DNA of 59,445 nucleotides from Candidatus Daviesbacteria bacterium (GTDB lineage Bacteria > Patescibacteriota > Microgenomatia > Daviesbacterales > UBA10151). The stretch lies in NCBI GenBank assembly GCA_030699125.1, contig JAUYKM010000005.1, positions 1-59,445 on the forward strand, read 5' to 3'. Below the pieces are notes generated by a model. That model saw only the letters and a program-made list of their open reading frames with translations. It was not told where the DNA came from and searched no databases. Below, piece by piece: positions 24,675 to 58,049 of the stretch (position 1 is its first letter; each line of letters opens with the position of its first letter). Both the position numbers and the translations under genes were made by a program.

Positions 24675-24898
24675 AAAAGTATTAGAAAACAATTGGGTAG
24701 TTGAACTCTAAGAGTTAAACTGTCAAAAATAAATGAAGTGTAATTTCTTGCAGTCGAAATAACGTAATCATTAAGTTTTCTAAATGTTGATTATATACTA
24801 CTTACCTTAAATTAGAAACAAGCTGGATAGTAAATGCCAGTTTGATGAGTTCAAACCTCCCATCAGGGGTAGTAAAAGTTGAGGCTAAAAGGTACTAG

Positions 24899-24971
24899 GG
24901 TGGCTGACGGGAATTGAACCCGCAACATTCAGATCCACAATCTGACGCTCTGCCATTGAGCTACAGCCACC
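24899..24971 (-). tRNA. tRNA-His(GUG)
   Basis: G-1, GTGGCTG/CAGCCAC, anticodon arm TCAGA-TT-GTG-GA-TCTGA, T-loop TTCAATT, C discriminator. Confidence 0.95.
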
Positions 24972-25139: not shown

Positions 25140-25168
25140 ACTATATAATGATAAACAACTTCTGTCAA
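25140..25168 (-). promoter_or_regulatory. Near-consensus sigma70 promoter driving the candidate sRNA
   Basis: TTGACA-17 bp-TATAGT. Confidence 0.7.
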
Positions 25169-25170
25169 CT

Positions 25171-25205
25171 GGGATTAAATGGATCATATCCCATCAAAAC
25201 ACCAA
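25171..25205 (+). repeat. Array repeat A, copy 1 (partial)
   Basis: gggattaaatggatcatatcccatcaaaacaccaa; lacks ataaatgccg relative to copies 2 and 3. Confidence 0.8.
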
Positions 25206-25721: not shown

Positions 25722-25803
25722 TTAGAAGGGTAAGATTTCTGAAGATTTAACTTTTAATGCAACAGATAATCCTTTCAAGATTTCAAAAGATGGGTTTTCT
25801 TCA
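25722..25803 (-). pseudogene. XRE-HTH C-terminal remnant B1
   Basis: EENPSFEILKGLSVALKVKSSEILPF*; no start codon, in-frame stop immediately upstream. Confidence 0.7.
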
Positions 25804-26055
25804 TCCTAAAATCTTTTTTATGGCTTCATTGGGAATTCCAACTCGTCTTAATTGAGTTCTATAGCTTGCTGAGGTGTTAGGATCATAGTTTCCTTTCTTT
25901 AAAATTACTATGACAAAAGGCCTGGTACCTTTTGGAACTTTTTGTGGAGTAGGATGGACGTATTTTAAATGACTGGTGGCATTTTGAGGTTCTTCAGTAA
26001 ACTTTTGATCTTTTAATAATTTACAAAGTTCTTCAGAAGTAAATGATCGAGGCAT
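25801..26055 (-). CDS. HicA-like mRNA interferase toxin
   Basis: 84 aa; ELCKLLKDQKF, TSHLKYVHP (His motif); paired with a HicB-like gene. Confidence 0.7.
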   Translation of the reverse strand: MPRSFTSEELCKLLKDQKFTEEPQNATSHLKYVHPTPQKVPKGTRPFVIVILKKGNYDPNTSASYRTQLRRVGIPNEAIKKILG

Positions 26056-26431: not shown

Positions 26432-26486
26432 GTGTGTTTAAGGGATAAATGCCGATTAAATGGATCATATCCCATCAACACACCAA
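26432..26486 (+). repeat. Array repeat A, copy 2
   Basis: gtgtgtt-taa-gggata ... tatccc-atc-aacacac-caa hairpin; 45-bp core is 44/45 identical to copy 3. Confidence 0.9.
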
Positions 26487-27299: not shown

Positions 27300-27408
27300 T
27301 TAGAAAGGTAACATCTTTGAAGATTTAACTTTTAATGCTACAGATAATCCTTTTAAGATTTCAAAAGATGGATTTTCTTCTTCTCTTTCAATTCTAACAT
27401 TATAGCTA
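27300..27408 (-). pseudogene. XRE-HTH C-terminal remnant B2
   Basis: NSYNVRIEREEENPSFEILKGLSVALKVKSSKMLPF*; 59/62 nt identical to B1 over the core. Confidence 0.75.
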
Positions 27409-27965: not shown

Positions 27966-28019
27966 TGTGTTCGGGGGATAAATGCCGATTAAATGGACCA
28001 TATCCCATCAACACACCAA
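27966..28019 (+). repeat. Array repeat A, copy 3
   Basis: tgtgtt-cgg-gggataaatgccgattaaatggaccatatcccatcaacacaccaa. Confidence 0.9.
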
Positions 28020-29496: not shown

Positions 29497-31557
29497 TTAG
29501 TAAGGAGTGGTGAATGGACAGAGGGTGGGGCTGGGTGTAAAAAGCACCGGGACCGATTCGTTTTCGTTGATGGTATTAACCGTCAAACGCAAAGAACACA
29601 AATCCGGAGTGCCTCCGTTGAACCAGCTTGTTAAAGCCGCGTCAGCAAGTGCGATGACCTCATCGACTGTAAGACCGCTGTTGGGGTCACCTGCATTCAT
29701 GTAAGTGGCCGAACCCATTCCCGCAAACTTGCGGACATTGAGCTTTAGAGCCAACAGCTGAGCACTCAAGAGCTCATGGCAATCTCCGCTGGAATCAGCT
29801 GGAGGCAGAAATTCGCTTTCGCGACAGTCTGCTCCGTTGCCGGTTGAACACAGGTTTCCGATCTCGCCGGGTAAGGTTTGGGAGGGCTCATCGAGACTTC
29901 CATCAGCTGCAAATACAAGATCTGCATCTTCTGGAGAGTTAACGATTAAATGCCGTCCAATTGCTTGTCCAATTAAGATTGGATTAGCTGCCAGACCGTT
30001 GTAGGTCGGATCCTTTGGTGCTTCAGGAGCTGTAGCTTCTGTTCCAGAATGAGTTTTCCAGTAACCCCAGGTTAACCCACCTTCGAAAGGAATCAGGCAA
30101 ATGTTGCCGAAGTTCTTTCCGGTGACTACCTCAGGCGGCTGTGGAGAACCATCTCCTGCGTGAAGCGGGAAAGTCTCCCGATGTCCACCCGGTGCTTCAG
30201 GGTTTAAGGCTGAGCAGAGCGTATTCTGCGGTGCAGTCTGAACCCAATCAGCATCAGGAAGAACTTCACACACCAGATAGGTGCCCGGGATCAAACCAGT
30301 GAAGGCGTACTCGCCGGACGCATTAGTGTAAGTCGTGGTAATCAGCACGCCGTTCTGGTAGAGCTCGATCCTCCAGCCTGGGATAGAAACCTCATCCCTT
30401 GATGCTCCGTCACGGTTGCTGTCATAGAACTTGCGTCCTCTGATCTCGTTCAGCTGGATGTTGCCGAACCGTAGATCCTGAGCGGATGATACTTTGCCAC
30501 TGCTCTTGGTGAGAGTGACAATGTAGTATCCATCTTTTGGATCTACTGTAGTTCCTGCAGGCTGTACCAAAGGCACATCTGCATCTGTTGGATCGGTGTT
30601 CAGCCAGTTGGCTTGGAGTACCTCGTTGACAGTGTAGGTCCCTTCCTGTCGTTCACAGAAAGAGAACTGCCCAGTCGCTGAGCTCACATCCGTGGCCAAG
30701 ACAGTGCCCGTGCCGTTTGAGCCGGAACGAAGCTGAATGGTCCAACCGGACAAACCTTCTTCGCCCGTGTCGAGATCGCCGTCAGCATTGTGATCATGGT
30801 ACTTTATTCCCACGATACAGCCAAGCTGAAGTCTTTCCCGGACTTTGAAGTTGTCGGTCTTGGTGTGACCTTGCTGGAATCCAGCCAGGTTGGCTGCCCG
30901 ACAGGCCGCTACTGTGGGACTGTTACCAGGGCCTGGTACACAGGAGAGATTTCCACCGTTTCCGGTGTAGTCATCCTCACTGGTAATCCAGGTTTTGTAA
31001 ACACCCCCGTTGTTGGGCGTGTCGTCGAACTTGTCTCCGCCGCCTGAAACCGCTCTGTTGAGCTGGATGGTTTTAGCCGATCCATGTATCCCAACATCGT
31101 GGTCGTGACCTGTCTTGTGCTCACAGCTTCCAGTGACAACTACCCCTGAGATCCGACCGTTGCTGGCAGTGAAACGCCGGCATTGGGCCGCATCGTTTGA
31201 GAGTAGTACTTCCAGGTTGTTATCAGAGCCTGGTGGAGCTGTAACCATGAAGACGTACGTTCCGTCAGCCAATCCGTCGCCGCCAGGGCCATTGGGTCCT
31301 CCATTTAGGAAGACACAATCCTTGGCATTGGCTGCCGCCGGTAAACCAACTGCTGCCAGTTGTGCATTACAGTCAGTAAAACTCGGATTAGGTCCGGGTT
31401 CGGGGTAAACGTTGCCGTTTACCTGCTCACCATGAGGGTATGATGTCCAGATTGCTCCGTTAAGAGCATGAGCAGAAACCCCATTAAGGGTAATCTGAGT
31501 AAACAACACACCAGTTAGGAGAACTAGAAATGCTGTTGCCAATATTCTGCTTCGCAC
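29497..31557 (-). CDS. Secreted SdrD-B/Cna-B repeat surface protein, GC-richer than flanks
   Basis: Signal peptide; two G.KY.D.N.DG...EEGLSGWTIQL / GTYTVNEV modules; many Cys; SD ggagga before GTG. Confidence 0.8.
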   Translation of the reverse strand: MRSRILATAFLVLLTGVLFTQITLNGVSAHALNGAIWTSYPHGEQVNGNVYPEPGPNPSFTDCNAQLAAVGLPAAANAKDCVFLNGGPNGPGGDGLADGTYVFMVTAPPGSDNNLEVLLSNDAAQCRRFTASNGRISGVVVTGSCEHKTGHDHDVGIHGSAKTIQLNRAVSGGGDKFDDTPNNGGVYKTWITSEDDYTGNGGNLSCVPGPGNSPTVAACRAANLAGFQQGHTKTDNFKVRERLQLGCIVGIKYHDHNADGDLDTGEEGLSGWTIQLRSGSNGTGTVLATDVSSATGQFSFCERQEGTYTVNEVLQANWLNTDPTDADVPLVQPAGTTVDPKDGYYIVTLTKSSGKVSSAQDLRFGNIQLNEIRGRKFYDSNRDGASRDEVSIPGWRIELYQNGVLITTTYTNASGEYAFTGLIPGTYLVCEVLPDADWVQTAPQNTLCSALNPEAPGGHRETFPLHAGDGSPQPPEVVTGKNFGNICLIPFEGGLTWGYWKTHSGTEATAPEAPKDPTYNGLAANPILIGQAIGRHLIVNSPEDADLVFAADGSLDEPSQTLPGEIGNLCSTGNGADCRESEFLPPADSSGDCHELLSAQLLALKLNVRKFAGMGSATYMNAGDPNSGLTVDEVIALADAALTSWFNGGTPDLCSLRLTVNTINENESVPVLFTPSPTLCPFTTPY

Positions 31558-31653
31558 TGTTTTCCTCCAATTACAAAACTATACTCTACTGGAATTTAAT
31601 GAGCTTATTCAGAAAGCTAACAATCTGAAAAGCATACATCCCCCCTTTCTTAA

Positions 31654-31685
31654 AGGCTATATTAAATTGTTAAGGTACCTCCTTT
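31654..31685 (-). promoter_or_regulatory. Shared leader motif, copy 1
   Basis: 27/32 identical to 56764-56794. Confidence 0.6.
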
Positions 31686-31842
31686 CCGCTCTTTAGCGTA
31701 AAAGTTAGGATCTCTCTTATTACCCAGAAAGGATAAATAGGCCGCATTTGACCTTATCCTTTTATGGTTTTAAGAGAACCTATAAATTGGTTGGGGTTGA
31801 AAAAACAAGCCGCTTTTGGCTTGAAACCCTAATCCGAATCCG

Positions 31843-31871
31843 ATAGTAATAAATCCTTAGTTAAATGTCAA
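31843..31871 (-). promoter_or_regulatory. sigma70 promoter giving a ~280-nt leader
   Basis: TTGACA-17 bp-TACTAT. Confidence 0.65.
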
Positions 31872-31986
31872 GTAATGCTGATCATAACTGATAAATATTT
31901 CATGTAAATTTTGGGGACTTAGAATAATAAACTACAGGTATGACTTAATATGGCAAACTATAACAATATCTGTTATTTAAAAAAAG

Positions 31987-33708
31987 CTAGTTTGAAAAAG
32001 GAAGTAGATCCCAAAGTTCTATTGGGTTAAGGATGGCAGATAATATGTTTGGTTCCAGGGTTCCAAAGTCTAAAATATTTTCACCGCTGATTAATTCTTT
32101 TTGAATTGTTTTAACTTTATAGTTTTCCTTTTCCAGACTAAATTCAAAAGTATAACCCGGCAACAAGTATCTTGCCTCCAAATCCCCTGATTGTCCAGCT
32201 TCAGATAAAATTATTTTTTGAACTGTTTCACCTGTCGGGCCTTTCACACTAAGTAAATATTCTCCTTTGTGAACTCTTTTCCACTTAAGAAGGCTGATGA
32301 TTTTTAATATAACCGGAGATTTTACTTCTGTGGTGAATTCAACTGATCCGCTTTCAAACTGTTCTGAGCCGAAGAATAGATTTAGTACAAGATTGAATGA
32401 GCCCTTCCCAGGCGCATGCAAATCCAGCTGAAAAGTGTATTCCTGACCAGGTTCTATCTTAGTATCTGGTGGCACCTCAACTTCTTTAATTCCTAAATCA
32501 TTTCCGCCTTTTAGAGGAATAAGCTTTACTGTTTCACTATCATTCCAGATTGACTGACCGATATTTTTAAGAGTTAAATTAATTTGGTAGCTTTCACCAG
32601 ATACAATAGTATTGTAGATTTCTCCCTTGATAAGTTGAGCTCTGTGCTCTTGCACAGGTTTTCCAGCTACTTTTGGGAGATTCTTGATAGTATGATATTG
32701 CGGATAAAAAGTGTTTTGAGTACCATTGCCATTAAATTTCTTGAAGGAAAAATGATCAAATGGCCCCTCCTGATAATCTAGCAGAAATGGTGTGATGGCC
32801 ACTATCCTTTGGGATGACCAAGCAATCTCAAATGCTGATTTATAATACTGGGCTACCTTTTCAGCTGAAGGGAAGGATGAGTATGTTTGGAGTCCTTCTG
32901 CATGTTGCCAACCAGTTTCCGTAATAAAAACAGGCAAATTTTTAGTTACTCCCATCTCTCGCAGTATCTGCAGTTCCCAGTACCAGGTTCTAATTGTGCC
33001 TCTGCCATTATCATCAGGTGAACCAGTAAAATTCGGATTGGGATAGGAGTGAGAGACCCAGCCATCCAGTTTATTAAAGATACCTGGTACTTCTTCCTCC
33101 ATCTGTCTCATAAATTTAACTTGATCTTCATATAAAGGAGGCTTTGAGGGCGCTGAGGCATCAAAACCTCCGTTGAGTACAAAATAGTCTCGATTTTTTG
33201 ATTTTAGCTCTGTGATAACCTTATCTAATACTTTTGCATACATTTTAGCGTCAACAAAATTTCCCCATTCTTTACCATGATTAGGCTCATTATAGACAAT
33301 AACATATCTGTTCTTGGTAGGCCAGTTAAGGCTATTCAAAAAGTCTGCCCAGGCTTTTTCCTCTCCCTCATAAGGCCTTTCCCATCCGTCAGCTGACGGA
33401 TCATTAAGCGGCTTGGTGGCCAGCCTAACAATGGGAATTAGGTGTTTACTTCTAAGTTCATTAAAAAACGCCTGCCATTTATTATGATCTCTGTCTTTAG
33501 ATTCAATTAAGAAAGTTACATAGCCCCAATCTCCATTGGTATTTGCCAATGATGCAGCAGGGGAAGATTCATCAGGAGTAGCATGAATAATATGAATGCC
33601 AAATTTATTATTGGGAACAGATAAAGGATCATAAACTGCTTCCACAATCTTTGTTGTAACTAATAAATACAAGGCTGCAAGAAGTAATAAGGTGGCAATA
33701 ATCCGCAT
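31987..33708 (-). CDS. Secreted clan GH-A glycoside hydrolase-like protein with C-terminal Ig-like domains
   Basis: Signal peptide; IVYNEPNH (acid/base), SHSYP, PVFITETGW (nucleophile); LKNIGQSIW Ig domain. Confidence 0.78.
   Translation of the reverse strand: MRIIATLLLLAALYLLVTTKIVEAVYDPLSVPNNKFGIHIIHATPDESSPAASLANTNGDWGYVTFLIESKDRDHNKWQAFFNELRSKHLIPIVRLATKPLNDPSADGWERPYEGEEKAWADFLNSLNWPTKNRYVIVYNEPNHGKEWGNFVDAKMYAKVLDKVITELKSKNRDYFVLNGGFDASAPSKPPLYEDQVKFMRQMEEEVPGIFNKLDGWVSHSYPNPNFTGSPDDNGRGTIRTWYWELQILREMGVTKNLPVFITETGWQHAEGLQTYSSFPSAEKVAQYYKSAFEIAWSSQRIVAITPFLLDYQEGPFDHFSFKKFNGNGTQNTFYPQYHTIKNLPKVAGKPVQEHRAQLIKGEIYNTIVSGESYQINLTLKNIGQSIWNDSETVKLIPLKGGNDLGIKEVEVPPDTKIEPGQEYTFQLDLHAPGKGSFNLVLNLFFGSEQFESGSVEFTTEVKSPVILKIISLLKWKRVHKGEYLLSVKGPTGETVQKIILSEAGQSGDLEARYLLPGYTFEFSLEKENYKVKTIQKELISGENILDFGTLEPNILSAILNPIELWDLLPFSN
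33384..33401. repeat. 18-bp perfect palindrome within coding sequence
   Basis: atccgtcagctgacggat; same family as tccgccagctggcgga at 52913. Confidence 0.6.
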
Positions 33709-37720: not shown

Positions 37721-37726
37721 TACATC

Positions 37727-37755
37727 TTGTAACCGGCAAAATTTTACTATAGAAT
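37727..37755 (+). promoter_or_regulatory. Promoter duplicated upstream of both large paralogues
   Basis: TTGTAA-17-TAGAAT here and TTGTAT-17-TATCAT at 40776-40804; shared acatcttgta..aaaattttactata. Confidence 0.55.
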
Positions 37756-37765
37756 TATAGAATTA

Positions 37766-40700
37766 ATGCAGATTCTACCAATGAGCAATCTGGGTAAACA
37801 CGTAAGCTTTTTTCTGTCCTTTTTTATTTATTTAACTGCTTTTTTATTTTTGGGATCTATCTATCAAGCAGAGGCACTTCCTCCTGCCGATTTTGATAAA
37901 ATAAAAGTGGTTGATGGTTTGGAAAGACCGACAGCCTTTAGATTTGTATCTAATGGGGATATTTATATTGGGGAGCAATCAGGAAAAATAAAAATTCTCA
38001 GAAACGGCAGTCTTCTTCCTACTCCTTTGATTAGCTTAAGTACCTTATCTGATTATGAAAGAGGTCTTTGGGGACTGGAGATTGATCCTAACTTTTCTAC
38101 CAATGGTTATATCTATGTCTCCTATACTTCATCCACAGATAACTTGGATAGATTATCCAGATTTAAAGTAACAAATGATGTGGCAGATCCTTTGTCGGAA
38201 TTGATATTTCATCCTTCCCGTGATCCTATCTCCAATACCTTCCATCATGGCAATGATGTTAGGGTAGGACCTGATGAAAAAACCTGGTGGGTGGTAGGGG
38301 ATAATATGAATATTAACAATCCACAGTCAACTAACTCCCTGCATGGCAAGGTTAATAGATTTGATCCTGATGGCTCTCACTCAAATGATAACCCCTGGTA
38401 TGGACTGCCTAATACTGAACATGCTGTTTGGGCAATTGGGCTGCATAACCCTTTCAGGTTTATATATCTACCAAATGGAAAACCTTTGGTAACTGATTCA
38501 GGTTCCCAATGGGAGGAATTTAATATTATTGAAAAGGCCGGCAATTACGGCTGGCCTCTTTATGAGGGTGATTGTGGCAGTTGCGGCTTTATTAATCCTG
38601 TTTTTGCATACCAGCACTCTGCTGATCCGGAAAAAGATGGACAAGCTTCAGGTTTAGCTTTATATAGCGGATCAACCTTTCCAGTTGATTACCATGATGC
38701 AATATTTTACGGGGATTTAGAACAAAACTTTATTCGCTACCTAAAATTTGATTCCTCTTTTCAGACGGTATTATCCAGTGGTGATTTTGACATGGATGCA
38801 AACTCCCCGGTAGATCTACATACCGGAGTTGACGGCAACCTTTATTATCTATCCTTGGGGGAAGGTGCTCTTTATAAAATTATCCCCTCAGGGGGAAATA
38901 GAACTCCACTGGCCAAGGCCTCTGCTGATACTACGGCTGGTTTGTCACCTTTGACTGTCACTTTTTCCTCAGCTGGTTCAAATGACCCTGATGCGGATAC
39001 TACTTCCTATCTTTGGGATTTTGGAGATGGCGCCAGCTCAACTGATCCCAACCCGACGCATATATTTACTAGTAACGGCGTGTATGTTGTCACGCTGGAA
39101 GTGAGCGATGAATCAAAAAGCAACCAGGCATCTATTGAGATTACAGTAGGTAATAGAGCTCCAACTGCTACTATTACAGGACCTTTGGAAGGTATCAAAT
39201 ATAATGTAGGCTCAATCATTAGTTTTTCTGCTTCAGCGAATGATCCTGAGGATCCATCCTTACCCTCGTCCGCATACTCCTGGAAAGTAATACAACATCA
39301 CGGGACTCACCGCCACCCTTACTCAGGTCCTTTTGAGGGTATCAAATCAGGCAGCTTTACTATCTTAAATGATTACAGTAATGAAGCTAATAGCTGGTAC
39401 ACCATAGTTCTGACTGTGACTGACTCAGGAGGACTTAAAGATACTGTCTTCAGAAATATTTTTCCTAACCTGATAAATGCCGCTTTTCAATCATCTACAG
39501 AGGGTGCCAAATTTACAGTTGATGGTAGGGTTCATTCCGTGAACTTTTCCGATTCTTTTGTAGTTGGCATAAATAAAGGGGTAAGCGCATCTTCTCCCCA
39601 AAGCATAAATTCTCTGGATTACCGTTTTAGTACCTGGTCTGATGGAGGGAGTCTGACGCACAATATCACCATTCCTTCAATTAGCAATTTATACCAGATT
39701 AACTTTACTCAGATTTTACCGCTACCTAATCCCTGGCAAACAATAGACATCGGGGCTGTCAAGTTAATAGGTTCTGCTGATGCCACTACAGCTATCGGTG
39801 GATTTATTTTGACAGGAGCAGGTTCAGATATTTGGGGCACCAAAGATGAATTCCGCTATTTGTACCAGACGCTTTCCGGCGATGGTGAAATTAGCGCGCA
39901 GGTTGTTTCTCAAACCAATACTAACTCTTCTGCTAAAACCGGGGTAATGATTAAGCAGTCCCCGCAAGCTTTATCGCCTTATGTCATGATGGGAGTCACA
40001 CCTTCAGGCTATAAATTCCAATGGAATTTCTCCGGTTCCAAATCCGGAGGATCATTTACTTTTCCCAATGCCTGGGTTAAGTTAAAAAGAGTAGGGAATT
40101 CGTTCACCGCCTATAAATCCAGTAACGGTACTTCCTGGACTCAAGTTGGAAAACCGGTCAGTTTAACACTAAATTCCGATGTCACTATTGGCCTTTTTGA
40201 CACATCGCATAGTAGCAATGCTCTTTCAACTGTGGTATTTCAAAATGTAAATGTAATTGGCTCAGTTTCACCTTCTCCCACCCCAACTCCCAGCCCTCTA
40301 CCCACTCCTACTCCTTCCTCTTCACCAACATTAGTACTTAGCAACCTGCAGGTATTTGACAGTGCCAAAGCTTCTAAGTGGTCCTTGCAGCTCAATATTC
40401 AAAATGGCTTGTTGCAATATGGGGATAGAACCTATACTTTAAGCAATATTCCATTAAATCTTCTGGGGGCTCCCTGGATACGTACTGCTAATGCCTCTAA
40501 ATCCTTCACCGGAAATCCCACAGTAACATTTACTATAAATCAAGATGCTAGCGTATATGTTGCTCAGGATACCAGATTAGTAAAACCTGTCTGGATGGAT
40601 GCTTCATGGATAAATACAGGCTTAACACTTACAAATAGCGATAATAAAACATTCCTGCTCTATGCAAAAGCATACCCGGCAGGATCTGTTAGTTTGGGAC

Positions 40701-40771
40701 CGGTAACTGCTACCTCTACTACTGCCAATATGTATACGGTGATTGTTTTGACACATTCTGACCTATTTTGA
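37766..40771 (+). CDS. Secreted PQQ-dependent sugar dehydrogenase-like beta-propeller + PKD + lectin-like module + PT linker + C-terminal beta domain
   Basis: ERGLWGLEIDPNF..NGYIYVSYT, GLHNPFR, EEFN...NYGWP, YLWDFGDG. Confidence 0.85.
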   Translation: MQILPMSNLGKHVSFFLSFFIYLTAFLFLGSIYQAEALPPADFDKIKVVDGLERPTAFRFVSNGDIYIGEQSGKIKILRNGSLLPTPLISLSTLSDYERGLWGLEIDPNFSTNGYIYVSYTSSTDNLDRLSRFKVTNDVADPLSELIFHPSRDPISNTFHHGNDVRVGPDEKTWWVVGDNMNINNPQSTNSLHGKVNRFDPDGSHSNDNPWYGLPNTEHAVWAIGLHNPFRFIYLPNGKPLVTDSGSQWEEFNIIEKAGNYGWPLYEGDCGSCGFINPVFAYQHSADPEKDGQASGLALYSGSTFPVDYHDAIFYGDLEQNFIRYLKFDSSFQTVLSSGDFDMDANSPVDLHTGVDGNLYYLSLGEGALYKIIPSGGNRTPLAKASADTTAGLSPLTVTFSSAGSNDPDADTTSYLWDFGDGASSTDPNPTHIFTSNGVYVVTLEVSDESKSNQASIEITVGNRAPTATITGPLEGIKYNVGSIISFSASANDPEDPSLPSSAYSWKVIQHHGTHRHPYSGPFEGIKSGSFTILNDYSNEANSWYTIVLTVTDSGGLKDTVFRNIFPNLINAAFQSSTEGAKFTVDGRVHSVNFSDSFVVGINKGVSASSPQSINSLDYRFSTWSDGGSLTHNITIPSISNLYQINFTQILPLPNPWQTIDIGAVKLIGSADATTAIGGFILTGAGSDIWGTKDEFRYLYQTLSGDGEISAQVVSQTNTNSSAKTGVMIKQSPQALSPYVMMGVTPSGYKFQWNFSGSKSGGSFTFPNAWVKLKRVGNSFTAYKSSNGTSWTQVGKPVSLTLNSDVTIGLFDTSHSSNALSTVVFQNVNVIGSVSPSPTPTPSPLPTPTPSSSPTLVLSNLQVFDSAKASKWSLQLNIQNGLLQYGDRTYTLSNIPLNLLGAPWIRTANASKSFTGNPTVTFTINQDASVYVAQDTRLVKPVWMDASWINTGLTLTNSDNKTFLLYAKAYPAGSVSLGPVTATSTTANMYTVIVLTHSDLF

Positions 40772-40850
40772 CATCTTGTATCCCTAAAAATTTTACTATA
40801 TCATTGCGCGGCCTTAACTTAAAAAGCCTTTTTGAGCATACAGTTTATCT

Positions 40851-43800
40851 ATGAACAGACTTATAACATTTTTAATTAATTACATGGGGGTAAATTTTTT
40901 ACTACTTTTTATTATTCTTATGGTTTTTCTAGTGACAGGTGTTGTCTCTCCCGCCTTTGCTCTTCCTCCGGCAGACTTTGATAAAATTAAGGTAATTGGT
41001 AACCTGCAAGACCCGACAGCTTTCAGATTTGCTCCCAATGGCGATATCTATATAGCGCTTCAGTCAGGACAAATTGTAATATTGAGGGGTGGTGTGCTTT
41101 TGCCTACTCCGGTAATTTCTCTAAACGCTGACTCATTTAACGAAAAAGGCCTTTTGGGAATGGAACTTGACCCAAATTTTGCCGCTAATGGTTATATATA
41201 TGTATCTTATACCTCTCTAGCAGATGGTTTTGCCAGAATATCCAGAATTACTGTGGTTAATGACATTGCTGATTCATCTTCTGAGGTGATGTTTGGTCAA
41301 TCAAACCAGACTGCTGATATTTTCCATAATGCCAATGATGTCAGAGTGGGCCCTGATGGAAAAATCTGGTGGCTGATTGGTGATAATTTGCAGCCTGCCA
41401 ACTCGCAATCCCTGTCTAATGTTCATGGTAAAGTTCACAGATTCGATATGGATCTGTCATCAGCCAATGATAATCCCTGGCACGGAAAATCAGGACAAGG
41501 CATCACCGACTCGATATACGCCTTGGGACTAAGGAACCCTTTTAGAATGACATTTTTGCCCAATGGTAAAGCTATAACGGGAGATGTTGGTTCCAATATT
41601 TCAGAGGAATTTAATGTGGTTGAGCCTGGTGCAAATTTTGGCTGGCCCAATGTGGAGGGCGATTGCGGAGCTTGCGGATATGCTAACCCGATCTACTCCT
41701 ATGTTCATGGCGGATTTGGTGCAGCTGTTACTGGTATGGCCATTTACAACGGAACTGCTTTCCCTTCTCAATTTCAAAATGTCCTTTTTTATGGTGATTA
41801 TGCAAAGGGAGTTATCAGATACCTGGTATTTGATGAGAGTTACGGTAGTGTTTTATCTGATAACAGCTTCGATGATGATGCGGGAACTGTGGTAGATATA
41901 CACCAGGGGCCAGATGGCAACCTTTACTATTTGGGGATTTTTGAGAAAACTCTTTGGAAAATAATTCCTGCCGGAGGGAACAGAACTCCAATTGCTCAAG
42001 CATCGGCAGATCCTATTGCCGGCCTGGCACCCTTGATTGTAAATTTTTCTTCCTCAGGTTCATTAGATCCTGATGGTACCCCACTCGCTTACAACTGGGA
42101 TTTCGGTGATACTACCACCTCAACAGATGCCAACCCCATTCATACCTATAATACTAATGGCACTTATAATGTGGTCCTGACTGTGAGCGACGGCGAAAAA
42201 ACAGCTCAGGCTGCAGTAACTGTTACCGTTGGAAACGAGCTTCCCAATGCGGAAATTAATACGCCAATAGATGCATTTAAGTATAATGCAGGTTGGCAAA
42301 TTGACTTTAGCGGCTTAGGTACTGACCCTGAGGATGGTAATTTGCCTGATAGCGCATTTTCCTGGACCATTGTTTTTCATCATGCCCAGCATATACATCC
42401 TTTTGAAGGTCCCTTCAATGGAATAAAGAATGGCAGCTTTGTAATTCCTTTTAACATTGCCCAGGAGCATGATACCTGGTACAGAATAGAGTTGACCGTC
42501 ACTGATTCTGCAGGGCTTAAACGCAAGGTGACCAGGGATATTTTTCCCAACCTGGCCCAGCTAACAATCCAATCTAATGTAGCAGGTACTCAATTTCTGG
42601 TAGATGGAAAGCTTTATACTGAGGCCTTCACGTCGCAGGAAGTAGTAGGAGTAAATCATGGTGTAGCAGCGCTAACTCCGCAATTTATTGGAACTGACAA
42701 ATACAGATTTGAGAGCTGGTCAGATGGAGGGGCAGCCATACATACAATAGTAGTTCCTGAAACTGATTCAATATTTACAGTAAATTATAGGCTGGTGACA
42801 CCTCCTCCTCCGCCATGGCAAGCCATAGATGTGGGGAATCCAGCCTTATTTGGCAACACTGATTTTTCACTAGCTGATAATAGTTTTTATATAGAGGGAG
42901 CTGGCTGGGATATCTGGGATATGACTGATCAGTTTCATTATATGTATCAAAATCTTGATGGCAATGGCGAAATAATTGCCAGAATCACCTCCCTTTCCAA
43001 CATTGATCCTTTTACCAAAGTGGGATTAATGATTAAAGAGTCTATTGCTCCTTTATCTTCATACGCCATGGTGGCATTAACCCCTATCAATGGCACGCTC
43101 TTTCAATATAATTTCAACGGCAGCCAGGGAGGGCTGGAGATGCCCTATACTTTACCTGCCTGGGCCAAACTTGTTAGGGAAGGTAATAAATTTACTTCAT
43201 ATATTTCTCCTGATGGGATTAATTGGACCCTGGTCGGTACAAAAACCTTTGAAATGAATGCTCAAACAACAGTAGGAATTTTTGTCAACTCCCACAATGG
43301 CGGTAAGCTGGCAACTGCTAATTTTGATAATGTGAGTGTAAATGATGTGCTGGATCCTCCTAATACGCCTCCCACTGCCTTAAACCAAATAATCTTCACT
43401 CCTCAGGATAGGTCAGTTGACCTCACGCTTGCAGCTATAGATCCTGATGCCGGAAGATTGGCGCATTTTTTAACAGTCAACCCAACACATGGCATTGTGG
43501 CAGGAACGGCCCCGCAATTTAGCTATACACCTGAAGTAGGCTTTGTGGGTACAGATAGTTTCTCCTTCAAATCCAATGATGGCTTCTCAGACAGTAATGA
43601 AGCCACCATTTCAGCCCAGGTAACCACAGCTGTTGAGCCTATGCCCGCTCCCTGGACAAATTTGGATATTGGTTCTCCGCTGATGGCGGGTTCAGCAGAG
43701 TTTGCCGGCGGCATGTTCTTTATTAAAGGTGGTGGGGATGATATCTGGCAGGGAGTAACGCCGGATGTTAAAGTCGACCAATTCCATTTTGTTCAGCAGC

Positions 43801-46800
43801 CATTTTCCGAAGATGGAGAAATTGTGGCTAGAATCAGTTCGCAAACCTATACAGATGAATGGGCCAAAGCCGGGGTAATGATTAAGGAATCAAACACAGC
43901 CGGTGCTCCTTATGTGATGATGGCTACCACCCCTGGCAACGGATTTGCATTTCAATCTGATTTTATCTCGGATATACACGGGGATGTCTACAGTTTCCCC
44001 GAGGCCTGGGTTAAGTTGAAAAGAATCGGCAATACTTTCGTGGCATATAAATCCTCAGATGGAGCCAATTGGATTCAAGTTGGTTCAAAAACTCTGGCAA
44101 TGAATTCCAATGCGGTGGCAGGAATGTTTGTCACCTCTCATAACGGCAGTGCCTTAAGCAGAGTGACCTTTGATAATGTATCAGTAAATGGTGTCAGTGT
44201 CTCGCCGCTCCCTGCACCATGGCTCAGTTCTGATGTGGGTAATCCGGAAATTGCCGGATCAGCCAGTTTTGAAAATGATAAATTCATTGTTAACGGAGCA
44301 GGCATTGATGTATGGGATGTTAATGACCAATTCCACTTTGTCTATCAGGGTTTATCCGGTGATGGGGAAATTGTGAGTAGGGTATTGACCCAGACCAATA
44401 CTAATCCGGATGCCAAGGCAGGAATTATGATTAAGGAGTCAACAGAAGCCTTTTCTCCATATGCATTTTTGTCTGTAACACCCACCAATGGGGTTCGTTT
44501 TCAATATAACTTTAACGGTGAACTGATTGACGGCACCTCAACTTATCCAGTTTGGCTTAAGCTAAAGAGATTTGGCACCACTATCACAGCCTATTCCTCA
44601 GTAGATGGCCTAAATTGGACTGAGATAGGAGCAACCAATATTGCCATGCCTGCTAACGCTCTCGTTGGTTTGGCAGTAACCTCCCATGATCCGCTGGTTT
44701 TGGGAACTGCCGAATTTGACAATGTTAGTGTTACTAAGGCTTCTGCACTTCCACAGCCGTGGCAGAATACTGATGTTGGCTTTTCTCTGCCTGGCGGTTC
44801 AGCCAGTTTTGAGGGGGAAATCTTCACTGTTAATGGCGGGGGTAATGATATTTGGGGCACCACAGATGAATTCCATTATGCATATCAGTACCTTTCAGGT
44901 GATATTGAATTTATTGCCAAGGTTAACTCCCAAACAAATACTGATCCCTGGGCTAAATCAGGACTGATGATTAAGCAGTCAACAAGTGCGCTTTCTCCTT
45001 ATGTACTTTTGGCTGTCACGCCGGAGAACGGGGTACACCTGCAGTCCAACTTTGTCTCTGATATAGGAGGTGGGCCGTACTCCTTCCCGGTTTGGCTTAA
45101 ATTAAAAAGAGTGGGCGATCTATTCACGGCTTACACATCAGCTGACGGCGTAATCTGGACAGAAGTGGGATCAACTACTCTGGCTATGTCTCCAAATGCC
45201 ACATTAGGCTTGGCTGTTAACTCTCATAACGGATCTCTCCTTAATACCACTCAATTTGAAAATGTCACTATCCTGGATGTTTCCTCACCGGTAGTATCTA
45301 TCACCAATCCCCTAGACGGAAGTGTGGTTGAACCAGGTACTATTGTTAATATTACTGCCGATGCTACAGATAATTTAACTATTACCAATTTAGAATTTTA
45401 TGTTGATGATGCCCTTTTAGGAACAGATAATAGTGCCCCCTATGAAATTGCCTGGGACACCACTAATCTTTCAGGACCGCATACCATTTTTGCCAAGGCT
45501 TATGATTCAGAAGGAAATATTGGTACCTCTTCCACTATCACCGCCAGTGTTGAACCGCCTATTGAAGTATTCTCTGATAGCTTTGAGACAACAGTACCTG
45601 TTTGGGGGGCTAACTGGACAGAAGATGCTCAGGGTGACTGGTTCCAGTCCACTCAAAGGGCTACCAATGGTGCCACTTCTGCCGAAGTTGATGGCATAGC
45701 TACTGATGCTCAGCTTATTTCCAATGATATTAACATGCAGGGTCGAACACAGGCTGATATTTCCTTTTCCTGGTTTATCGAGCCTACCCTGGATTTGGGA
45801 GAATATCTGGCTTTTGATGTATCAGAAGATGGGGGAGTCACCTGGACAGAAAAAGCCAAACTACAAGGGGACATAGATTTAGAAAACTCCTGGCATGCTG
45901 TGAATGTGCAAATGACAAATGTATCCAGCCTTAAGCTAAGATTCAGAGCTAATATGAATGAGTCAGCAGAAGATGCTGATGTGGATAATGTTAAGGTGAT
46001 GGCTGGAGTACTTCCTCCTCCTGACCCTGTTCTCTATAGTGAGAGTTTTGAGGTAACTACTCCTGTCTGGGGCGGCAACTGGGCAGAGGATGCCCAGGGT
46101 GACTGGTTTCAGTCCACTCAAAGAGCCACTAACGGCTCATTTTCAGCAGAAGTGGATGGTTTAGCTACTGATGCTCAGCTTATTTCCTCTCCCATTGACC
46201 TGCAGGGAAATAATAGTGCCACTGTTTTGTTTTCCTGGCTGATTGAGCCAACTCTAGATTTGGGAGAATATATAGCCTTTGATATATCAACTGACGGGGG
46301 AGTGACCTGGAATGAGAAAGCTAAGCTGCAAGGTGATATTGATTTGGAAAATAGTTGGCAGGATGTATCTTTAGAGCTTATTAATATACCAAATTTGCAG
46401 TTTCGCTTCAGAGCCTTCATGAATGAATCAGCTGAAGACGCTGATGTGGATAATATTAGAGTTTTGGGTAAAAATGTCACACCTCCTCCCGGCAATACTG
46501 CACCGGTGGCTGATAATCAAAACCTGCAGACAAATGAGGATGTTGCCTTACCGATTACTCTGACTGCTACTGATCTGGATGGTCAAACTTTAAATTATAG
46601 TATTGTCACACCTCCAGCTAACGGGGTACTTACCGGCACTGCACCTAATTTAACCTACACACCGAATGCCAACTTTTCCGGAGCAGATCTCTTTAGTTTT
46701 AAAGCCAATGATGGATTTTTGGACAGCAATGTTGCCACAGTGAACATTGATGTTTTAGCCTTAAATGACAATCCCAATATCAGTTCATCTGCACCCACTG

Positions 46801-47957
46801 CTGCTTTTGTAGATACTTTATACAGCTACGATGTGGAGGCTCAGGATCCGGATGCAGACAGCTTAGTTTACAGCTTAACTATTTCTCCTTTGGGGATGAG
46901 TATTGATTCATCTACCGGCTTGATCCAATGGATACCGCTTGATTCTCAGCAGGGAGATCATAGTGTGGTGGTGAATGTCATAGATAATAATGGCGGAAGT
47001 GCTGACCAGTCATATACTTTGGCAGTCACTCCATTAATAACAGATCCTCTGGAGGTTTTCTCTGATAGCTTTGAGACAACAGTACCTGTCTGGGGCGGGC
47101 AGTGGGCAGAGGATGCCCAGGGTGACTGGTTTCAGTCCACTCAAAGAGCCACTAACGGCTCATTTTCAGCAGAAGTGGATGGTTTAGCTACTGATGCTCA
47201 GCTTATTTCCAATACCATAGATTTACAAGGCAGATCCCAGGCCACCATTACCTATTCCTGGTTTATTGAACCATCACTTGATTTGGGTGATTATATAGCC
47301 TTTGATGTATCAGAAGATGGGGGAGTAACCTGGACAGAAAAAGCCAAACTACAAGGGGATGTAGACACAGAGAATGTCTGGCACGATGTATCAATTGAGG
47401 TAGTTGGTGCCACTAACTTGAAATTAAGATTTAGAGGCAATATGGTTGATGGAGTTGAGGACGCAGATGTGGATAATGTTAAGGTTACGGCAGGAATATT
47501 ACCACCTCCTCCACCAATACTTTTTTCCGATAGCTTTGAGAACGGTCAGTGGAATGGATTATGGATTGAGGATGTTCAAAATGACTGGTTAACTTCCACT
47601 CAGAGAGCCACCAATGGCTCATTTTCAGCGGAAGTGGATGGGCTAGCTACCAATGCCACTATTACCTCAATTCCCGTTGATCTGCAGGGTAATAGCGATG
47701 TAACTATTTCTTTCTCCTGGCTGATTGAATCTACTCTGGATCTGGGTGAATATCTGGCTTTTGATGTATCAACTGATGGTGGAGCAACCTGGGTGGAAAT
47801 GGCTAAGTTAGACGGCGATGTTGATACGGAAAATATCTGGCACAGTGAGAGTATAACCTTAAATGGAATTAGCAGTCTACAAATTAGATTTAGAGCCAGT
47901 ATGGATGCAGGTACAGAGGATGCTGATGTTGATATGGTTAAAATCACTGCCCCCTGA
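40851..47957 (+). CDS. Giant (2368 aa) secreted paralogue: GSDH-like propeller, PKD, 4 lectin-like modules, Ig/cadherin-like domains, 4 repeats of a ~150-aa beta-sandwich
   Basis: GLRNPFR, NFGWP, YNWDFGD; four PW..DVG/DIG..AKAGxMIK repeats; DSFSFKSNDG; four FSDSFE...QRATNG...DADVDNV repeats. Confidence 0.88.
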   Translation: MNRLITFLINYMGVNFLLLFIILMVFLVTGVVSPAFALPPADFDKIKVIGNLQDPTAFRFAPNGDIYIALQSGQIVILRGGVLLPTPVISLNADSFNEKGLLGMELDPNFAANGYIYVSYTSLADGFARISRITVVNDIADSSSEVMFGQSNQTADIFHNANDVRVGPDGKIWWLIGDNLQPANSQSLSNVHGKVHRFDMDLSSANDNPWHGKSGQGITDSIYALGLRNPFRMTFLPNGKAITGDVGSNISEEFNVVEPGANFGWPNVEGDCGACGYANPIYSYVHGGFGAAVTGMAIYNGTAFPSQFQNVLFYGDYAKGVIRYLVFDESYGSVLSDNSFDDDAGTVVDIHQGPDGNLYYLGIFEKTLWKIIPAGGNRTPIAQASADPIAGLAPLIVNFSSSGSLDPDGTPLAYNWDFGDTTTSTDANPIHTYNTNGTYNVVLTVSDGEKTAQAAVTVTVGNELPNAEINTPIDAFKYNAGWQIDFSGLGTDPEDGNLPDSAFSWTIVFHHAQHIHPFEGPFNGIKNGSFVIPFNIAQEHDTWYRIELTVTDSAGLKRKVTRDIFPNLAQLTIQSNVAGTQFLVDGKLYTEAFTSQEVVGVNHGVAALTPQFIGTDKYRFESWSDGGAAIHTIVVPETDSIFTVNYRLVTPPPPPWQAIDVGNPALFGNTDFSLADNSFYIEGAGWDIWDMTDQFHYMYQNLDGNGEIIARITSLSNIDPFTKVGLMIKESIAPLSSYAMVALTPINGTLFQYNFNGSQGGLEMPYTLPAWAKLVREGNKFTSYISPDGINWTLVGTKTFEMNAQTTVGIFVNSHNGGKLATANFDNVSVNDVLDPPNTPPTALNQIIFTPQDRSVDLTLAAIDPDAGRLAHFLTVNPTHGIVAGTAPQFSYTPEVGFVGTDSFSFKSNDGFSDSNEATISAQVTTAVEPMPAPWTNLDIGSPLMAGSAEFAGGMFFIKGGGDDIWQGVTPDVKVDQFHFVQQPFSEDGEIVARISSQTYTDEWAKAGVMIKESNTAGAPYVMMATTPGNGFAFQSDFISDIHGDVYSFPEAWVKLKRIGNTFVAYKSSDGANWIQVGSKTLAMNSNAVAGMFVTSHNGSALSRVTFDNVSVNGVSVSPLPAPWLSSDVGNPEIAGSASFENDKFIVNGAGIDVWDVNDQFHFVYQGLSGDGEIVSRVLTQTNTNPDAKAGIMIKESTEAFSPYAFLSVTPTNGVRFQYNFNGELIDGTSTYPVWLKLKRFGTTITAYSSVDGLNWTEIGATNIAMPANALVGLAVTSHDPLVLGTAEFDNVSVTKASALPQPWQNTDVGFSLPGGSASFEGEIFTVNGGGNDIWGTTDEFHYAYQYLSGDIEFIAKVNSQTNTDPWAKSGLMIKQSTSALSPYVLLAVTPENGVHLQSNFVSDIGGGPYSFPVWLKLKRVGDLFTAYTSADGVIWTEVGSTTLAMSPNATLGLAVNSHNGSLLNTTQFENVTILDVSSPVVSITNPLDGSVVEPGTIVNITADATDNLTITNLEFYVDDALLGTDNSAPYEIAWDTTNLSGPHTIFAKAYDSEGNIGTSSTITASVEPPIEVFSDSFETTVPVWGANWTEDAQGDWFQSTQRATNGATSAEVDGIATDAQLISNDINMQGRTQADISFSWFIEPTLDLGEYLAFDVSEDGGVTWTEKAKLQGDIDLENSWHAVNVQMTNVSSLKLRFRANMNESAEDADVDNVKVMAGVLPPPDPVLYSESFEVTTPVWGGNWAEDAQGDWFQSTQRATNGSFSAEVDGLATDAQLISSPIDLQGNNSATVLFSWLIEPTLDLGEYIAFDISTDGGVTWNEKAKLQGDIDLENSWQDVSLELINIPNLQFRFRAFMNESAEDADVDNIRVLGKNVTPPPGNTAPVADNQNLQTNEDVALPITLTATDLDGQTLNYSIVTPPANGVLTGTAPNLTYTPNANFSGADLFSFKANDGFLDSNVATVNIDVLALNDNPNISSSAPTAAFVDTLYSYDVEAQDPDADSLVYSLTISPLGMSIDSSTGLIQWIPLDSQQGDHSVVVNVIDNNGGSADQSYTLAVTPLITDPLEVFSDSFETTVPVWGGQWAEDAQGDWFQSTQRATNGSFSAEVDGLATDAQLISNTIDLQGRSQATITYSWFIEPSLDLGDYIAFDVSEDGGVTWTEKAKLQGDVDTENVWHDVSIEVVGATNLKLRFRGNMVDGVEDADVDNVKVTAGILPPPPPILFSDSFENGQWNGLWIEDVQNDWLTSTQRATNGSFSAEVDGLATNATITSIPVDLQGNSDVTISFSWLIESTLDLGEYLAFDVSTDGGATWVEMAKLDGDVDTENIWHSESITLNGISSLQIRFRASMDAGTEDADVDMVKITAP

Positions 47958-53120: not shown

Positions 53121-54719
53121 TTATGCACCACTCATGAGAAGCTTTTGCTCCTCACTAACTTCTTCAACCAGTCCATGATCTGTTTTCTCCCAGTAAGAGG
53201 GATTGGTTATGAGTTGAATGAAGCCTTTCCAAGCTCCTACGCTCATCAATGCCCAATACAGGGGAGAGAGAATCATGAGAAGCGCGTTTGTGTATTTGCG
53301 TTTCAACATGCACACAACCAGCAGCTGGTGTACGAAGATGAAATTACCGAAGACCAAACACCCCAAACCCATATAGTAGACAGGCTCTGGATTAATTGCC
53401 CTGATTAAAGCAGGAACAAAAGAGAGTTCACTCTCCGGGCCTGCACCACTAGTCAGGATATAAAGGAGTGTCAGAGTCCAGTAAATGGGGTTTGCCAGAA
53501 GACAAAGAGGTGTACCTCCCACCACCAGTTGGAAGGAAAGAAAGTTCATCACACCCAATTGCCTGAGGAGCCGATAAGGATTTCGCATGTAAACCAGATA
53601 GGTCTGCATATAGCCTTTGATCCATCTTGATCTTTGACGAATCCAATTACCCAATCTGGAGTTGGCCTCCTCAAGGGTAGTGGAGTTGATCGTCTCGGTG
53701 CGATATCCCATTTCGGCCAGCCTGATGCCCAAATCACAATCTTCCGTGACGTTGTACGGATCCCAGCCGCCTACTTCCCTTAGGACTTGCGTCGGAAAGT
53801 GATTTGAGGTTCCCCCCAAAGGGATCGGTAGACCAAGTCTACTCATACCCGGCAAATCCAGGTTGAATAACTTGTCGTATTCTGCTCCGAAGCACCTTGT
53901 TAGGAAGAAGGCAATGATCCGTTTCTTAAGCTCTTTCAGATCCCCGGTTAAAACCAGCTTTGTTTCCGAGTTGTAGAACTCAAGACGGGATTGAATACAA
54001 CCTACCTTCTCTCCTGCCGATTGCCTGAATCCTGCGACTACCTTAAGCAGTTGATCTGCCTCCGGACGATCTTCCGCATCAAAGATGACGCAGTTCTCGC
54101 CAGTGGCTCGTGCAAGGCCGATGTTGCAGGCTCGAGGTTTGGTCTGAGGTTCTCCTGGTTTTGGCACTTCGCAAGCTACTATCTCAAAGCAACTGGGCAT
54201 CTGAGGTTGTAGCTCGTAGGCTACCTCAAGAGTGGTTTTTTCTCCTCTTTTGATCTCCTCTTCCTTGAGCTTTTCACTCATTTCTCCCAGCAGGAGAATT
54301 TGTAGCTTCTCCCTTGGATAGTCAAGAGCCATCAGTTTCAGGATGAGACTGGGAAGTATCCTTCCTTCTTTAAACAGAGGAACCAGTATGGTGTATGGTG
54401 GAAGATAGTCCCATTGCTTTTTAAGCTCTTCCACCACGCTCTCTGTTATAAAAATGGAAGCCTGTTGCGTGCCTAAAGAGTAGGTGGCCACCGTGGACTT
54501 AAAGAACATGACCGCAAAGTAAAAGGCAGTCATTGTTCCGTTGGCCACTATGGCATAACCACTCAGCACAGCCAGAAAGCCTTTCCAATCTCCAAAAAGG
54601 TAGGCAAAGACTAGACCCAAGGTTAGTCCAAGTACAAGTACTCGGAGAAACGCTTTTTGTCCTGGGTAGAGTGTTCTTATTGCCAACCTCTCAGGCGGTA
54701 ATCTCGTTATGGTAAGCAA
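53121..54719 (-). CDS. Processive GT2 glycosyltransferase (cellulose-synthase-like), membrane
   Basis: LVPLFKE, TKPRACN, IFDAED, LGGTSNHF, NVTEDCDLG, QRSRW (QxxRW). Confidence 0.93.
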   Translation of the reverse strand: MLTITRLPPERLAIRTLYPGQKAFLRVLVLGLTLGLVFAYLFGDWKGFLAVLSGYAIVANGTMTAFYFAVMFFKSTVATYSLGTQQASIFITESVVEELKKQWDYLPPYTILVPLFKEGRILPSLILKLMALDYPREKLQILLLGEMSEKLKEEEIKRGEKTTLEVAYELQPQMPSCFEIVACEVPKPGEPQTKPRACNIGLARATGENCVIFDAEDRPEADQLLKVVAGFRQSAGEKVGCIQSRLEFYNSETKLVLTGDLKELKKRIIAFFLTRCFGAEYDKLFNLDLPGMSRLGLPIPLGGTSNHFPTQVLREVGGWDPYNVTEDCDLGIRLAEMGYRTETINSTTLEEANSRLGNWIRQRSRWIKGYMQTYLVYMRNPYRLLRQLGVMNFLSFQLVVGGTPLCLLANPIYWTLTLLYILTSGAGPESELSFVPALIRAINPEPVYYMGLGCLVFGNFIFVHQLLVVCMLKRKYTNALLMILSPLYWALMSVGAWKGFIQLITNPSYWEKTDHGLVEEVSEEQKLLMSGA

Positions 54720-54735
54720 GTGTAACCTCCTTAGC

Positions 54736-56241: not shown

Positions 56242-56252
56242 TGCTCCTCCTT

Positions 56253-56687
56253 TTATGCTTTGAACACTAGCCATTTGTATCCGGCGAAATTCACTACAAA
56301 AGCAGCCAGGGTGGCTACCAAAGCGCTGAAATTCGTCCAGGCAATTCCCGTCACTCCCAGCTGTAGACCCAGCACGTCGATTAGAAACGAGGCTGTTCCC
56401 ACGTTGACTAGAAGCGCACCACCGCTTATTCCCACAAATTTGCCAATTTCTCCCACTCGAGCAGTCCTTGTACTCTGAAATGTCCAACGCTTGTTCCAAA
56501 TATAGCTGTTTGCTATTCCAGCTGAATAGGAAGAAGCCTTAAACAAAGAGAGCCAAGGTCCGGAAGTGATACCGGTGAGAAATAGGAGCACGTTGAACAA
56601 AGCTATGTCCACTATAGTGTTCGCTATACCCACCAAGCCGAACTTGATACCTTGTCTGACCATCTGCCCAAATCCCTGACCAAACAC
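56253..56687 (-). CDS. GtrA-family flippase-like membrane protein
   Basis: KFGLVGIANTIVD, NSYIWNKRWTF, NFAGYKWLVF. Confidence 0.9.
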   Translation of the reverse strand: MFGQGFGQMVRQGIKFGLVGIANTIVDIALFNVLLFLTGITSGPWLSLFKASSYSAGIANSYIWNKRWTFQSTRTARVGEIGKFVGISGGALLVNVGTASFLIDVLGLQLGVTGIAWTNFSALVATLAAFVVNFAGYKWLVFKA

Positions 56688-56763
56688 TTGCTCTTCCCTC
56701 CATTACTCAAGGTCCTGATTGGTTTAAGGCTGTACGCCACCTTGAGATGCGAATTATTTTATT

Positions 56764-56794
56764 AGGTTTTATTTAGTTGTTAAGGTACTCCTTT
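56764..56794 (-). promoter_or_regulatory. Shared leader motif, copy 2
   Basis: 27/32 identical to 31654-31685. Confidence 0.6.
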
Positions 56795-56972
56795 TTTAAA
56801 GGTTAAACTGAATCTCTACTTTCACAAGATATAAGAACCTTATAGCACGCAAGATTGTGCTTTGGTTCCCAAAGGTGTATGTAGAGTTTTTTGCTATGTA
56901 TCAATCAGATTAAAACTGCCCTATTCGCAATTGAATAGTTAAGTCCCAACCTATAACTGATTAAGCTTCAGC

Positions 56973-57001
56973 ATGATATTAAGAAGGAAGCTAAAAGTCA
57001 A
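56973..57001 (-). promoter_or_regulatory. sigma70 promoter giving a ~280-nt leader for gtrA/GT-C/GT2
   Basis: TTGACT-17 bp-TATCAT. Confidence 0.55.
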
Positions 57002-57043
57002 TATAAGGATGAGATTTTAAGGTTGTGATATCATCTATATAAT

Positions 57044-58009: not shown

Positions 58010-58049
58010 CGTTAGAACCGTCCTGCTCTATCCACTGAGCTATGGGCGC
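57977..58049 (-). tRNA. tRNA-Arg(UCU)
   Basis: GCGCCCA/TGGGCGT, D-arm GCTC/GAGC, anticodon TCT, GGGGG-TTCGAAT-CCCTC. Confidence 0.92.

Follow-up and report, generated by a model that had tools for sequence, protein, structure and literature searches.

In the present study, two long 5' leaders in a 59,445-nt stretch of Candidatus Daviesbacteria DNA (the whole stretch analysed, hereafter the window, on a contig whose source is groundwater metagenomes) were found to share a 32-nt motif with a boxA-like core. TypA is 80-84% identical to proteins of Candidatus Daviesbacteria, by which the organism belongs to the Microgenomates, within the CPR, and its strain also occurs in run X1/SRR13727534. BoxA is a short stretch of RNA through which, in rRNA operons, Nus factors are brought to RNA polymerase; in the rRNA antitermination complexes it is where NusB-NusE(S10) binds. 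Judged from the sequence, the proposal that the two motifs are boxA elements of mRNA leaders and bind NusB/NusE is in our view slightly likelier to be right than wrong. We base it on the fit of the core to boxA consensuses and on the exact 19-mer, which three unrelated genomes carry ahead of 23S rRNA. An earlier sequence-only reading of this DNA had proposed an unrecognised antitermination or protein-binding leader; the sequence supports a leader of this type, but the word unrecognised does not fit, since the class would be the recognised boxA. The motif and its parts are as follows.

31654-31685, minus strand: extended shared motif, copy A, AAAGGAGGTACCTTAACAATTTAATATAGCCT, made of the SD-like AAAGGAGG, the boxA-like core and the A/T-rich 3' flank TTTAATATAGCCT
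31667-31678, minus strand: boxA-like core of copy A, GTACCTTAACAA, exact 12-mer
56764-56795, minus strand: extended shared motif, copy B, (A)AAAGGAGTACCTTAACAACTAAATAAAACCT / AAAAGGAGTACCTTAACAACTAAATAAAACCT, with its 5' end at 56794 or 56795
56777-56788, minus strand: boxA-like core of copy B, GTACCTTAACAA, exact 12-mer

The two copies agree at 25 of 32 positions without a gap and at 27 of 32 with one gap, and the latter figure and the position in both leaders are as the sequence-only reading had given them. From the 3' edge of the motif to the start codon there are 96 nt in copy A and 76 nt in copy B, and from the end of the 12-nt core 109 nt and 89 nt. The leaders and the genes behind them are listed here.

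31558-31986, minus strand: leader A, a 429-nt spacer between a GH5-like gene (31987-33708) and the SdrD_B gene
29497-31557, minus strand: gene of a secreted surface protein of 686 aa with SdrD_B/SpaA domains, downstream of copy A, GC 52.4%
56688-57043, minus strand: leader B, a 356-nt divergent spacer between gtrA and an NAD-dependent epimerase gene (57044-58009)
53121-56687, minus strand: operon after copy B, with gtrA, a GT-C/PMT_2-like gene and a GT2 gene, GC 46-48%
56253-56687, minus strand: gtrA, first gene after copy B
54736-56241, minus strand: GT-C/PMT_2-like gene of the copy-B operon
53121-54719, minus strand: GT2 gene of the copy-B operon

The core matches 9 of the 11 positions of GYTCTTTAANA, a gamma-proteobacterial consensus. 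It keeps C4 and T6, the two positions at which the double mutation C4T/T6C abolished SuhB recruitment (PMC5725501). Its deviations, A3 and C5, are those of the cyanobacterial ITS boxA GAACCTTGAAAA, with which the ACCTT core is held in common. In addition, copy A is identical at 14 of 20 positions to the E. coli rrnH leader TGCTCTTTAACAATTTATCA, including TTAACAATTTA. Both copies lie on the sense strand in long 5' intergenic regions, and for both leaders the predicted MFE and centroid folds leave the motif unpaired or pair it only marginally.

The 59-kb window holds no rRNA gene, and NusB, S10, NusA, NusG and Rho were not seen among those of its genes that were annotated. Searches with genes close to both ends of the contig yielded nothing that extends it. 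No clear boxB or boxC partner of the boxA-like cores was found in the window. A small stem-loop, CGCUAAAGAGCG, lies 8 nt 5' of core A (31687-31698, minus strand); its fold z is -1.5 and its likeness to boxB is weak. The counterpart in copy B differs in form, being CCUUU-AAA-AAAGG and abutting the core, and a comparison of the upstream boxB-like hairpin across the genome matches was not decisive.

Evidence from outside the window shifts the balance towards the boxA reading. The 19-mer pattern GTACCTTAACAAYTWAATA, built from both copies, was scanned in 185,579 species reference genomes and gave 24 matches in scattered phyla, for which a rough chance estimate is about 17. Three of these matches, all in the sense direction, precede the 5' end of 23S rRNA by 264, 24 and 74 nt; the genomes are a Candidatus Saccharibacteria (CPR) MAG, a Dehalococcoidales MAG and a MAG labelled Pseudomonadales, in the last of which the 19-mer follows two spacer tRNAs. 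Since such regions make up roughly 0.1% of non-coding DNA, about 0.02 or fewer 23S-linked matches are expected by estimate. Furthermore, 12 of the 24 point in the sense direction towards a gene or rRNA that begins no more than about 265 nt downstream, as compared with 2 in antisense (binomial p = 0.013). The placement of the 24 matches is not random. Because the scan pattern was derived from both copies, the independent evidence consists of the rRNA association and the orientation bias only.

In a Candidatus Parcubacteria MAG (L032, 512-530), the 19-mer is located between two tandem SAM riboswitch aptamers (330-452 and 531-634), directly after the T-runs behind the first aptamer.

Inside the window, the weight of the pair is lower, and here the explanation by chance has to be considered. 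It says that two AT-rich non-coding stretches with purine-rich SD-like runs happen to share a 12-mer and its flanks, with no boxA function here, and we give it a lesser but still substantial probability, the highest among the rivals. The local alignment of leader A with leader B scores 21, as against 13.1 +/- 1.8 for dinucleotide shuffles, and only 1 of 1000 shuffles reaches 21, which is difficult to expect by chance. When 420 comparisons of intergenic pairs and orientations in the window are ranked, however, the A-B pair is sixth, below four true repeats at 25-28 kb and one tRNA-Arg pair and just above background pairs that score 19, 19 and 18. In the repeat search, the A-B motif (family D15) has several companions in the window, two-copy families 29-32 nt long with 71-81% identity, which also speaks for chance. 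The whole window was open to choice, and window-wide the pair by itself does not reach significance in spite of the single-pair shuffle frequency of 1 in 1000.

The counts of the core and of the consensus point in different directions. The exact 12-mer core occurs twice in the window where about 0.009 occurrences are expected, which argues against chance, whereas the merged boxA consensus GHHCYTTRAMAA has two window matches, both of them the motif copies, and the chance expectation is 1.6. A third copy of the motif was not found in the window even at 8 mismatches of 28, nor a copy of the core in about 77 kb of other Daviesbacteria DNA around TypA, and both results are in line with chance. By contrast, chance would not lead one to expect the pattern three times upstream of 23S rRNA and the 12:2 sense bias in other genomes, and both window copies are in sense in the two longest gene-proximal leaders. 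By the window alone, the motif pair stands at the top of the background and is not clearly beyond chance, neither established nor excluded as a real element.

The true repeats at 25-28 kb were described in their own right. A 54-nt repeat is present in three copies of up to 93% identity (25152-25205, 26433-26486 and 27966-28019) and an 84-nt repeat in two copies of 90% identity (25722-25805 and 27300-27383). They flank small ORFs just downstream of tRNA-His (24898-24970), and the arrangement resembles either an integrated element or a module of small genes that was duplicated. A 35-nt sequence (ACATCTTGTAwCC...AAAATTTTACTATA) occurs in two copies of 83% identity (37722-37756 and 40771-40805), directly 5' of paralogous genes of giant GSDH/PKD surface proteins (37766-40771 and 40851-47957), and is probably a common promoter or leader that was duplicated along with the gene. 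The spacer 1389-1814 contains an EamA-like N-terminal fragment of about 65 codons from the ATG at 1619, a likeness judged by eye, which is probably a gene remnant. The same spacer has a terminator-like hairpin at 1454-1485 on the plus strand, and a weak boxA-like CTACCTTAAGAA with 2 mismatches, at chance level, is present at 1511-1522.

The sequence-only reading had placed sigma70 promoters about 280 nt upstream of both genes. The following sites were found.

31843-31871, minus strand: promoter-like hexamers A, TTGACA-17-TACTAT, at shuffle frequency
56973-57001, minus strand: promoter-like hexamers B, TTGACT-17-TATCAT, at shuffle frequency
56756-56783, minus strand: alternative promoter-like site TTAACA-16-TAAAAT, overlapping core B, with no counterpart in copy A
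31800-31823, minus strand: intrinsic-terminator-like hairpin CAAGCCAAAAGCGGCTTG followed by T6, 165 nt after the stop codon of the GH5-like gene

The hexamers exist as described, but promoter-like sites number 2 in leader A and 3 in leader B where the shuffles give 2.5 and 2.3, and the terminator-like hairpin (31823-31800) lies within about 20 nt downstream of promoter A. This hairpin has the look of a terminator for the GH5-like gene on its 5' side. Because of the shuffle-level promoters and the hairpin behind promoter A, the leader length of 280 nt is unproven. If the alternative promoter at copy B were used, the boxA there would not be transcribed, and this counts against the boxA reading. 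The motif as a -35 element was itself considered and rejected, as the promoter-like site overlaps copy B only and copy A has no matching -10. A second shared element, TATA(A)GGTTCT, had been put forward as well; the string does exist in both leaders, but its spacing to the motif is about 90 nt in one and about 40 nt in the other, and by estimate a match of this size is expected by chance.

Both leaders contain stable hairpins and fold better than shuffles (z = -3.2 for A and -2.25 for B), which would suit a structured leader RNA that senses a ligand or protein in the manner of a riboswitch, with the motif as one conserved segment. We find this very improbable. The Rfam search proposed with the sequence-only reading was run and returned three tRNAs only on the whole window at gathering thresholds, and noise only, with no family, on both leaders at E<=10. 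The hairpins of leader A and leader B are not alignable and no conserved fold was seen between them, while the motif is unpaired. The homologous genes elsewhere are also without the motif. Upstream of the nearest homologues of the SdrD-like gene (45% identity or less, in high-GC organisms) there is no motif, and the nearest GtrA homologues (50% or less) are found in another gene context, after a TrwB-like gene, again with no motif. Thus the suggestion of an unrecognised cis-regulatory RNA finds no support. Likewise, ops/JUMPStart GGCGGTAGNNTG has no match within 2 mismatches in the leaders, and its window-wide count is at chance.

The 5' side of the motif is the part that boxA does not explain. 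AAAGGAG is common to both copies there and is present in no known boxA; it may belong to a composite signal or be context peculiar to the lineage. The complement to the anti-SD is perfect over 9 nt in copy A and extends over 6 nt in copy B, and no ATG, GTG or TTG follows the GGAG of the motif within 30 nt in either copy, as had been noted in the sequence-only reading. This would be in keeping with an element at the level of translation, in which the SD-like AAAGGAGG/AAGGAG and the unstructured A/C/U-rich tract form a ribosome standby or decoy site, an enhancer or the site of a Nus-independent RNA-binding protein. The unpaired state of the region in the predicted folds agrees with such an element. 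However, the motif is 76-96 nt away from the real start with a stable predicted hairpin between them, and the rRNA-linked 19-mers have no SD-like 5' flank and no ORF follows them. We consider the translational explanation improbable.

Two further scans bear on the same point. In metagenomes, AAGGAG(N)TACCTTAACAA gave at least 120 matches, and nearly all of those listed are coding or belong to an ordinary arrangement of SD, spacer and ATG. One notable locus among the metagenome matches listed belongs to Cloacimonetes (four entries). There, 26 nt identical to copy B (AAGGAGTACCTTAACAACTAAATAAA) form part of a 5' UTR, with a TTGACA-17-CATAAT promoter before them and a real SD and ATG behind. In viruses, 59 matches were obtained; in one phage family an SD and ATG follow the core directly, and the rest are chance-like. 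The translational explanation is favoured by these Cloacimonetes and phage occurrences, which directly precede a real SD and ATG. The gene downstream in Cloacimonetes encodes a secreted protein of 466 aa with a C-terminus that by eye is like a T9SS sorting domain. In the phage family (nine prophage-like IMG/VR entries), TACCTTAACAACTWAAT stands immediately before ATGGAGG-N9-ATG, which belongs to a conserved gene. In BLAST searches, leader A had no match in phages and leader B had none in plasmids.

A relative from the soil run X3 is 93-95% identical over the GH5-like gene, the TrwB-like gene and distal leader A, and carries the motif unchanged, a point in favour of the boxA reading since the sequence downstream differs. 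The stretch homologous to the window ends at 31655, not more than 1 nt from the 3' end of motif A, and beyond it the X3 contig (1572 nt) has over 1.3 kb that is unlike the window. Neither the SdrD-like gene nor the region 27.6-31.65 kb was found in X3 at 80% likeness or more. Together with the foreign GC of the downstream genes, this break would fit a recombination or cassette boundary, with the motif as the edge of a conserved block beside swapped foreign cassettes. We give this explanation little likelihood, clearly less than the translational one. One low-depth relative is its sole basis, and the break may be mere divergence, since the 30 nt after it are weakly alignable to the window (TTTAAG...ATGTA). 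At copy B no comparable boundary could be mapped, and no integrase, transposase or other recombinase was found beside either copy, nor was an inverted repeat partner seen. Small ORFs after motif A (MLFRLLAF* and a 17-aa ORF) had been tried as the basis of the motif and were rejected, being absent at copy B and in the X3 relative.

The SdrD_B-domain gene starts with GTG and has GGAGG 6 nt 5' of the start; gtrA also starts with GTG, with GGAGGG 8 nt 5' of it. The sequence-only reading had described a GTG start and a strong SD for both genes, and this is seen directly in the sequence, on the minus strand in both cases. GC is 40.4% in the window and 33-34% in the leaders, as compared with 52.4% in the SdrD-like gene and 46-48% in the gtrA operon. 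That the genes 3' of both motifs were horizontally acquired, as the same reading had claimed, is plausible from this foreign GC of 46-52% against 40%.

Public gene calls begin both genes 3' of the SD-preceded GTGs (31509-31557 and 56612-56687). As a result of these calls the SdrD-like protein is given as 670 aa, with part of the signal peptide missing, and GtrA as 119 aa, where homologues have 139-142 aa. On the other side of leader B, the epimerase ATG (57044) has no SD, and an extended -10-like TGATATCAT ends 7 nt 5' of it (57020-57046). The missing SD and this nearby -10-like element suggest that the epimerase mRNA may be leaderless. A minus-strand tRNA-Arg(TCT) at 57976-58049 overlaps the last ~34 nt of the plus-strand epimerase ORF (57044-58009).

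Under the boxA reading, the following course of events is proposed. The boxA, with the core GUACCUUAACAA and its A/U-rich 3' flank, would be transcribed in the leader 89-109 nt before the start codon and, being single-stranded, would be bound by the NusB-NusE(S10) heterodimer. Together with NusA and NusG, NusB-S10 would then render RNA polymerase termination-resistant and processive, as in rRNA operons. Such a polymerase could cross the long untranslated leader into the compositionally foreign envelope genes, which without it would be open to Rho-dependent polarity. We infer from the sequence that the motif may be transcribed and bound by Nus factors in this organism. A boxA in an mRNA leader can also have the opposite effect, as the one in the suhB leader leads to repression (PMC5725501). 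Antitermination is mildly preferred here over repression of the suhB type, and we infer this direction from the distance of 89-109 nt to the start codons and from the nature of the downstream genes.

A bolder proposal, to which we give a small chance, concerns the AAAGGAG. Fused to the boxA core, it would form a dedicated CPR signal that loads the general Nus complex, possibly helped by the 30S subunit or S10 at the SD-like part, onto the transcripts of acquired envelope genes. Such a signal would be an analogue of ops/RfaH made from housekeeping factors, and would act against Rho silencing in genomes without NusG paralogues.

Most demonstrations that Nus factors regulate through boxA outside rRNA operons come from Proteobacteria. 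If the boxA reading is true, such regulation would be extended to the Candidate Phyla Radiation, and it would suggest how very small genomes express acquired envelope genes without specialised antiterminators. If the resemblance is due to chance, the two loci are an ordinary pair of AT-rich leaders.

Compared with the boxA of rRNA operons, the motifs have a core of the same class (GTACCTTAACAA here, GCTCTTTAACAA in E. coli and GAACCTTGAAAA in cyanobacteria) and an A/T-rich 3' flank, as in E. coli AACAATTTATCA. They are likewise on the sense strand and predicted to be single-stranded, and the 19-mer occurs upstream of 23S in three genomes. They differ in standing before protein-coding envelope genes and in the SD-like AAAGGAG that abuts the 5' side.

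BoxA elements are also known from the 5' UTRs of mRNAs, namely those of suhB, rpsJ and toxin genes (Baniulyte et al. 2017, PMC5725501). Upstream of CRISPR arrays, boxA sustains transcription, according to the account of Stringer et al. 2020 given in PMC7862264. The present motifs resemble these cases in lying outside rRNA operons and upstream of a gene, and recruitment of Nus factors with an effect on Rho-dependent termination would be expected here too. The mRNA and CRISPR cases are from Proteobacteria, and most are no more than 50 nt away from the start codon, whereas the present ones are from the CPR, lie 89-109 nt away, precede envelope genes and are known by sequence.

The proposed arrangement is also comparable with ops/JUMPStart-RfaH, LoaP and UpxY, in which a short leader signal brings about the processive antitermination of long, often acquired envelope operons. 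The signals of the ops, LoaP and UpxY systems are recognised, as DNA or RNA, by specialised NusG paralogues, whereas in the two leaders described here the general NusB/NusE route is proposed to do this work.
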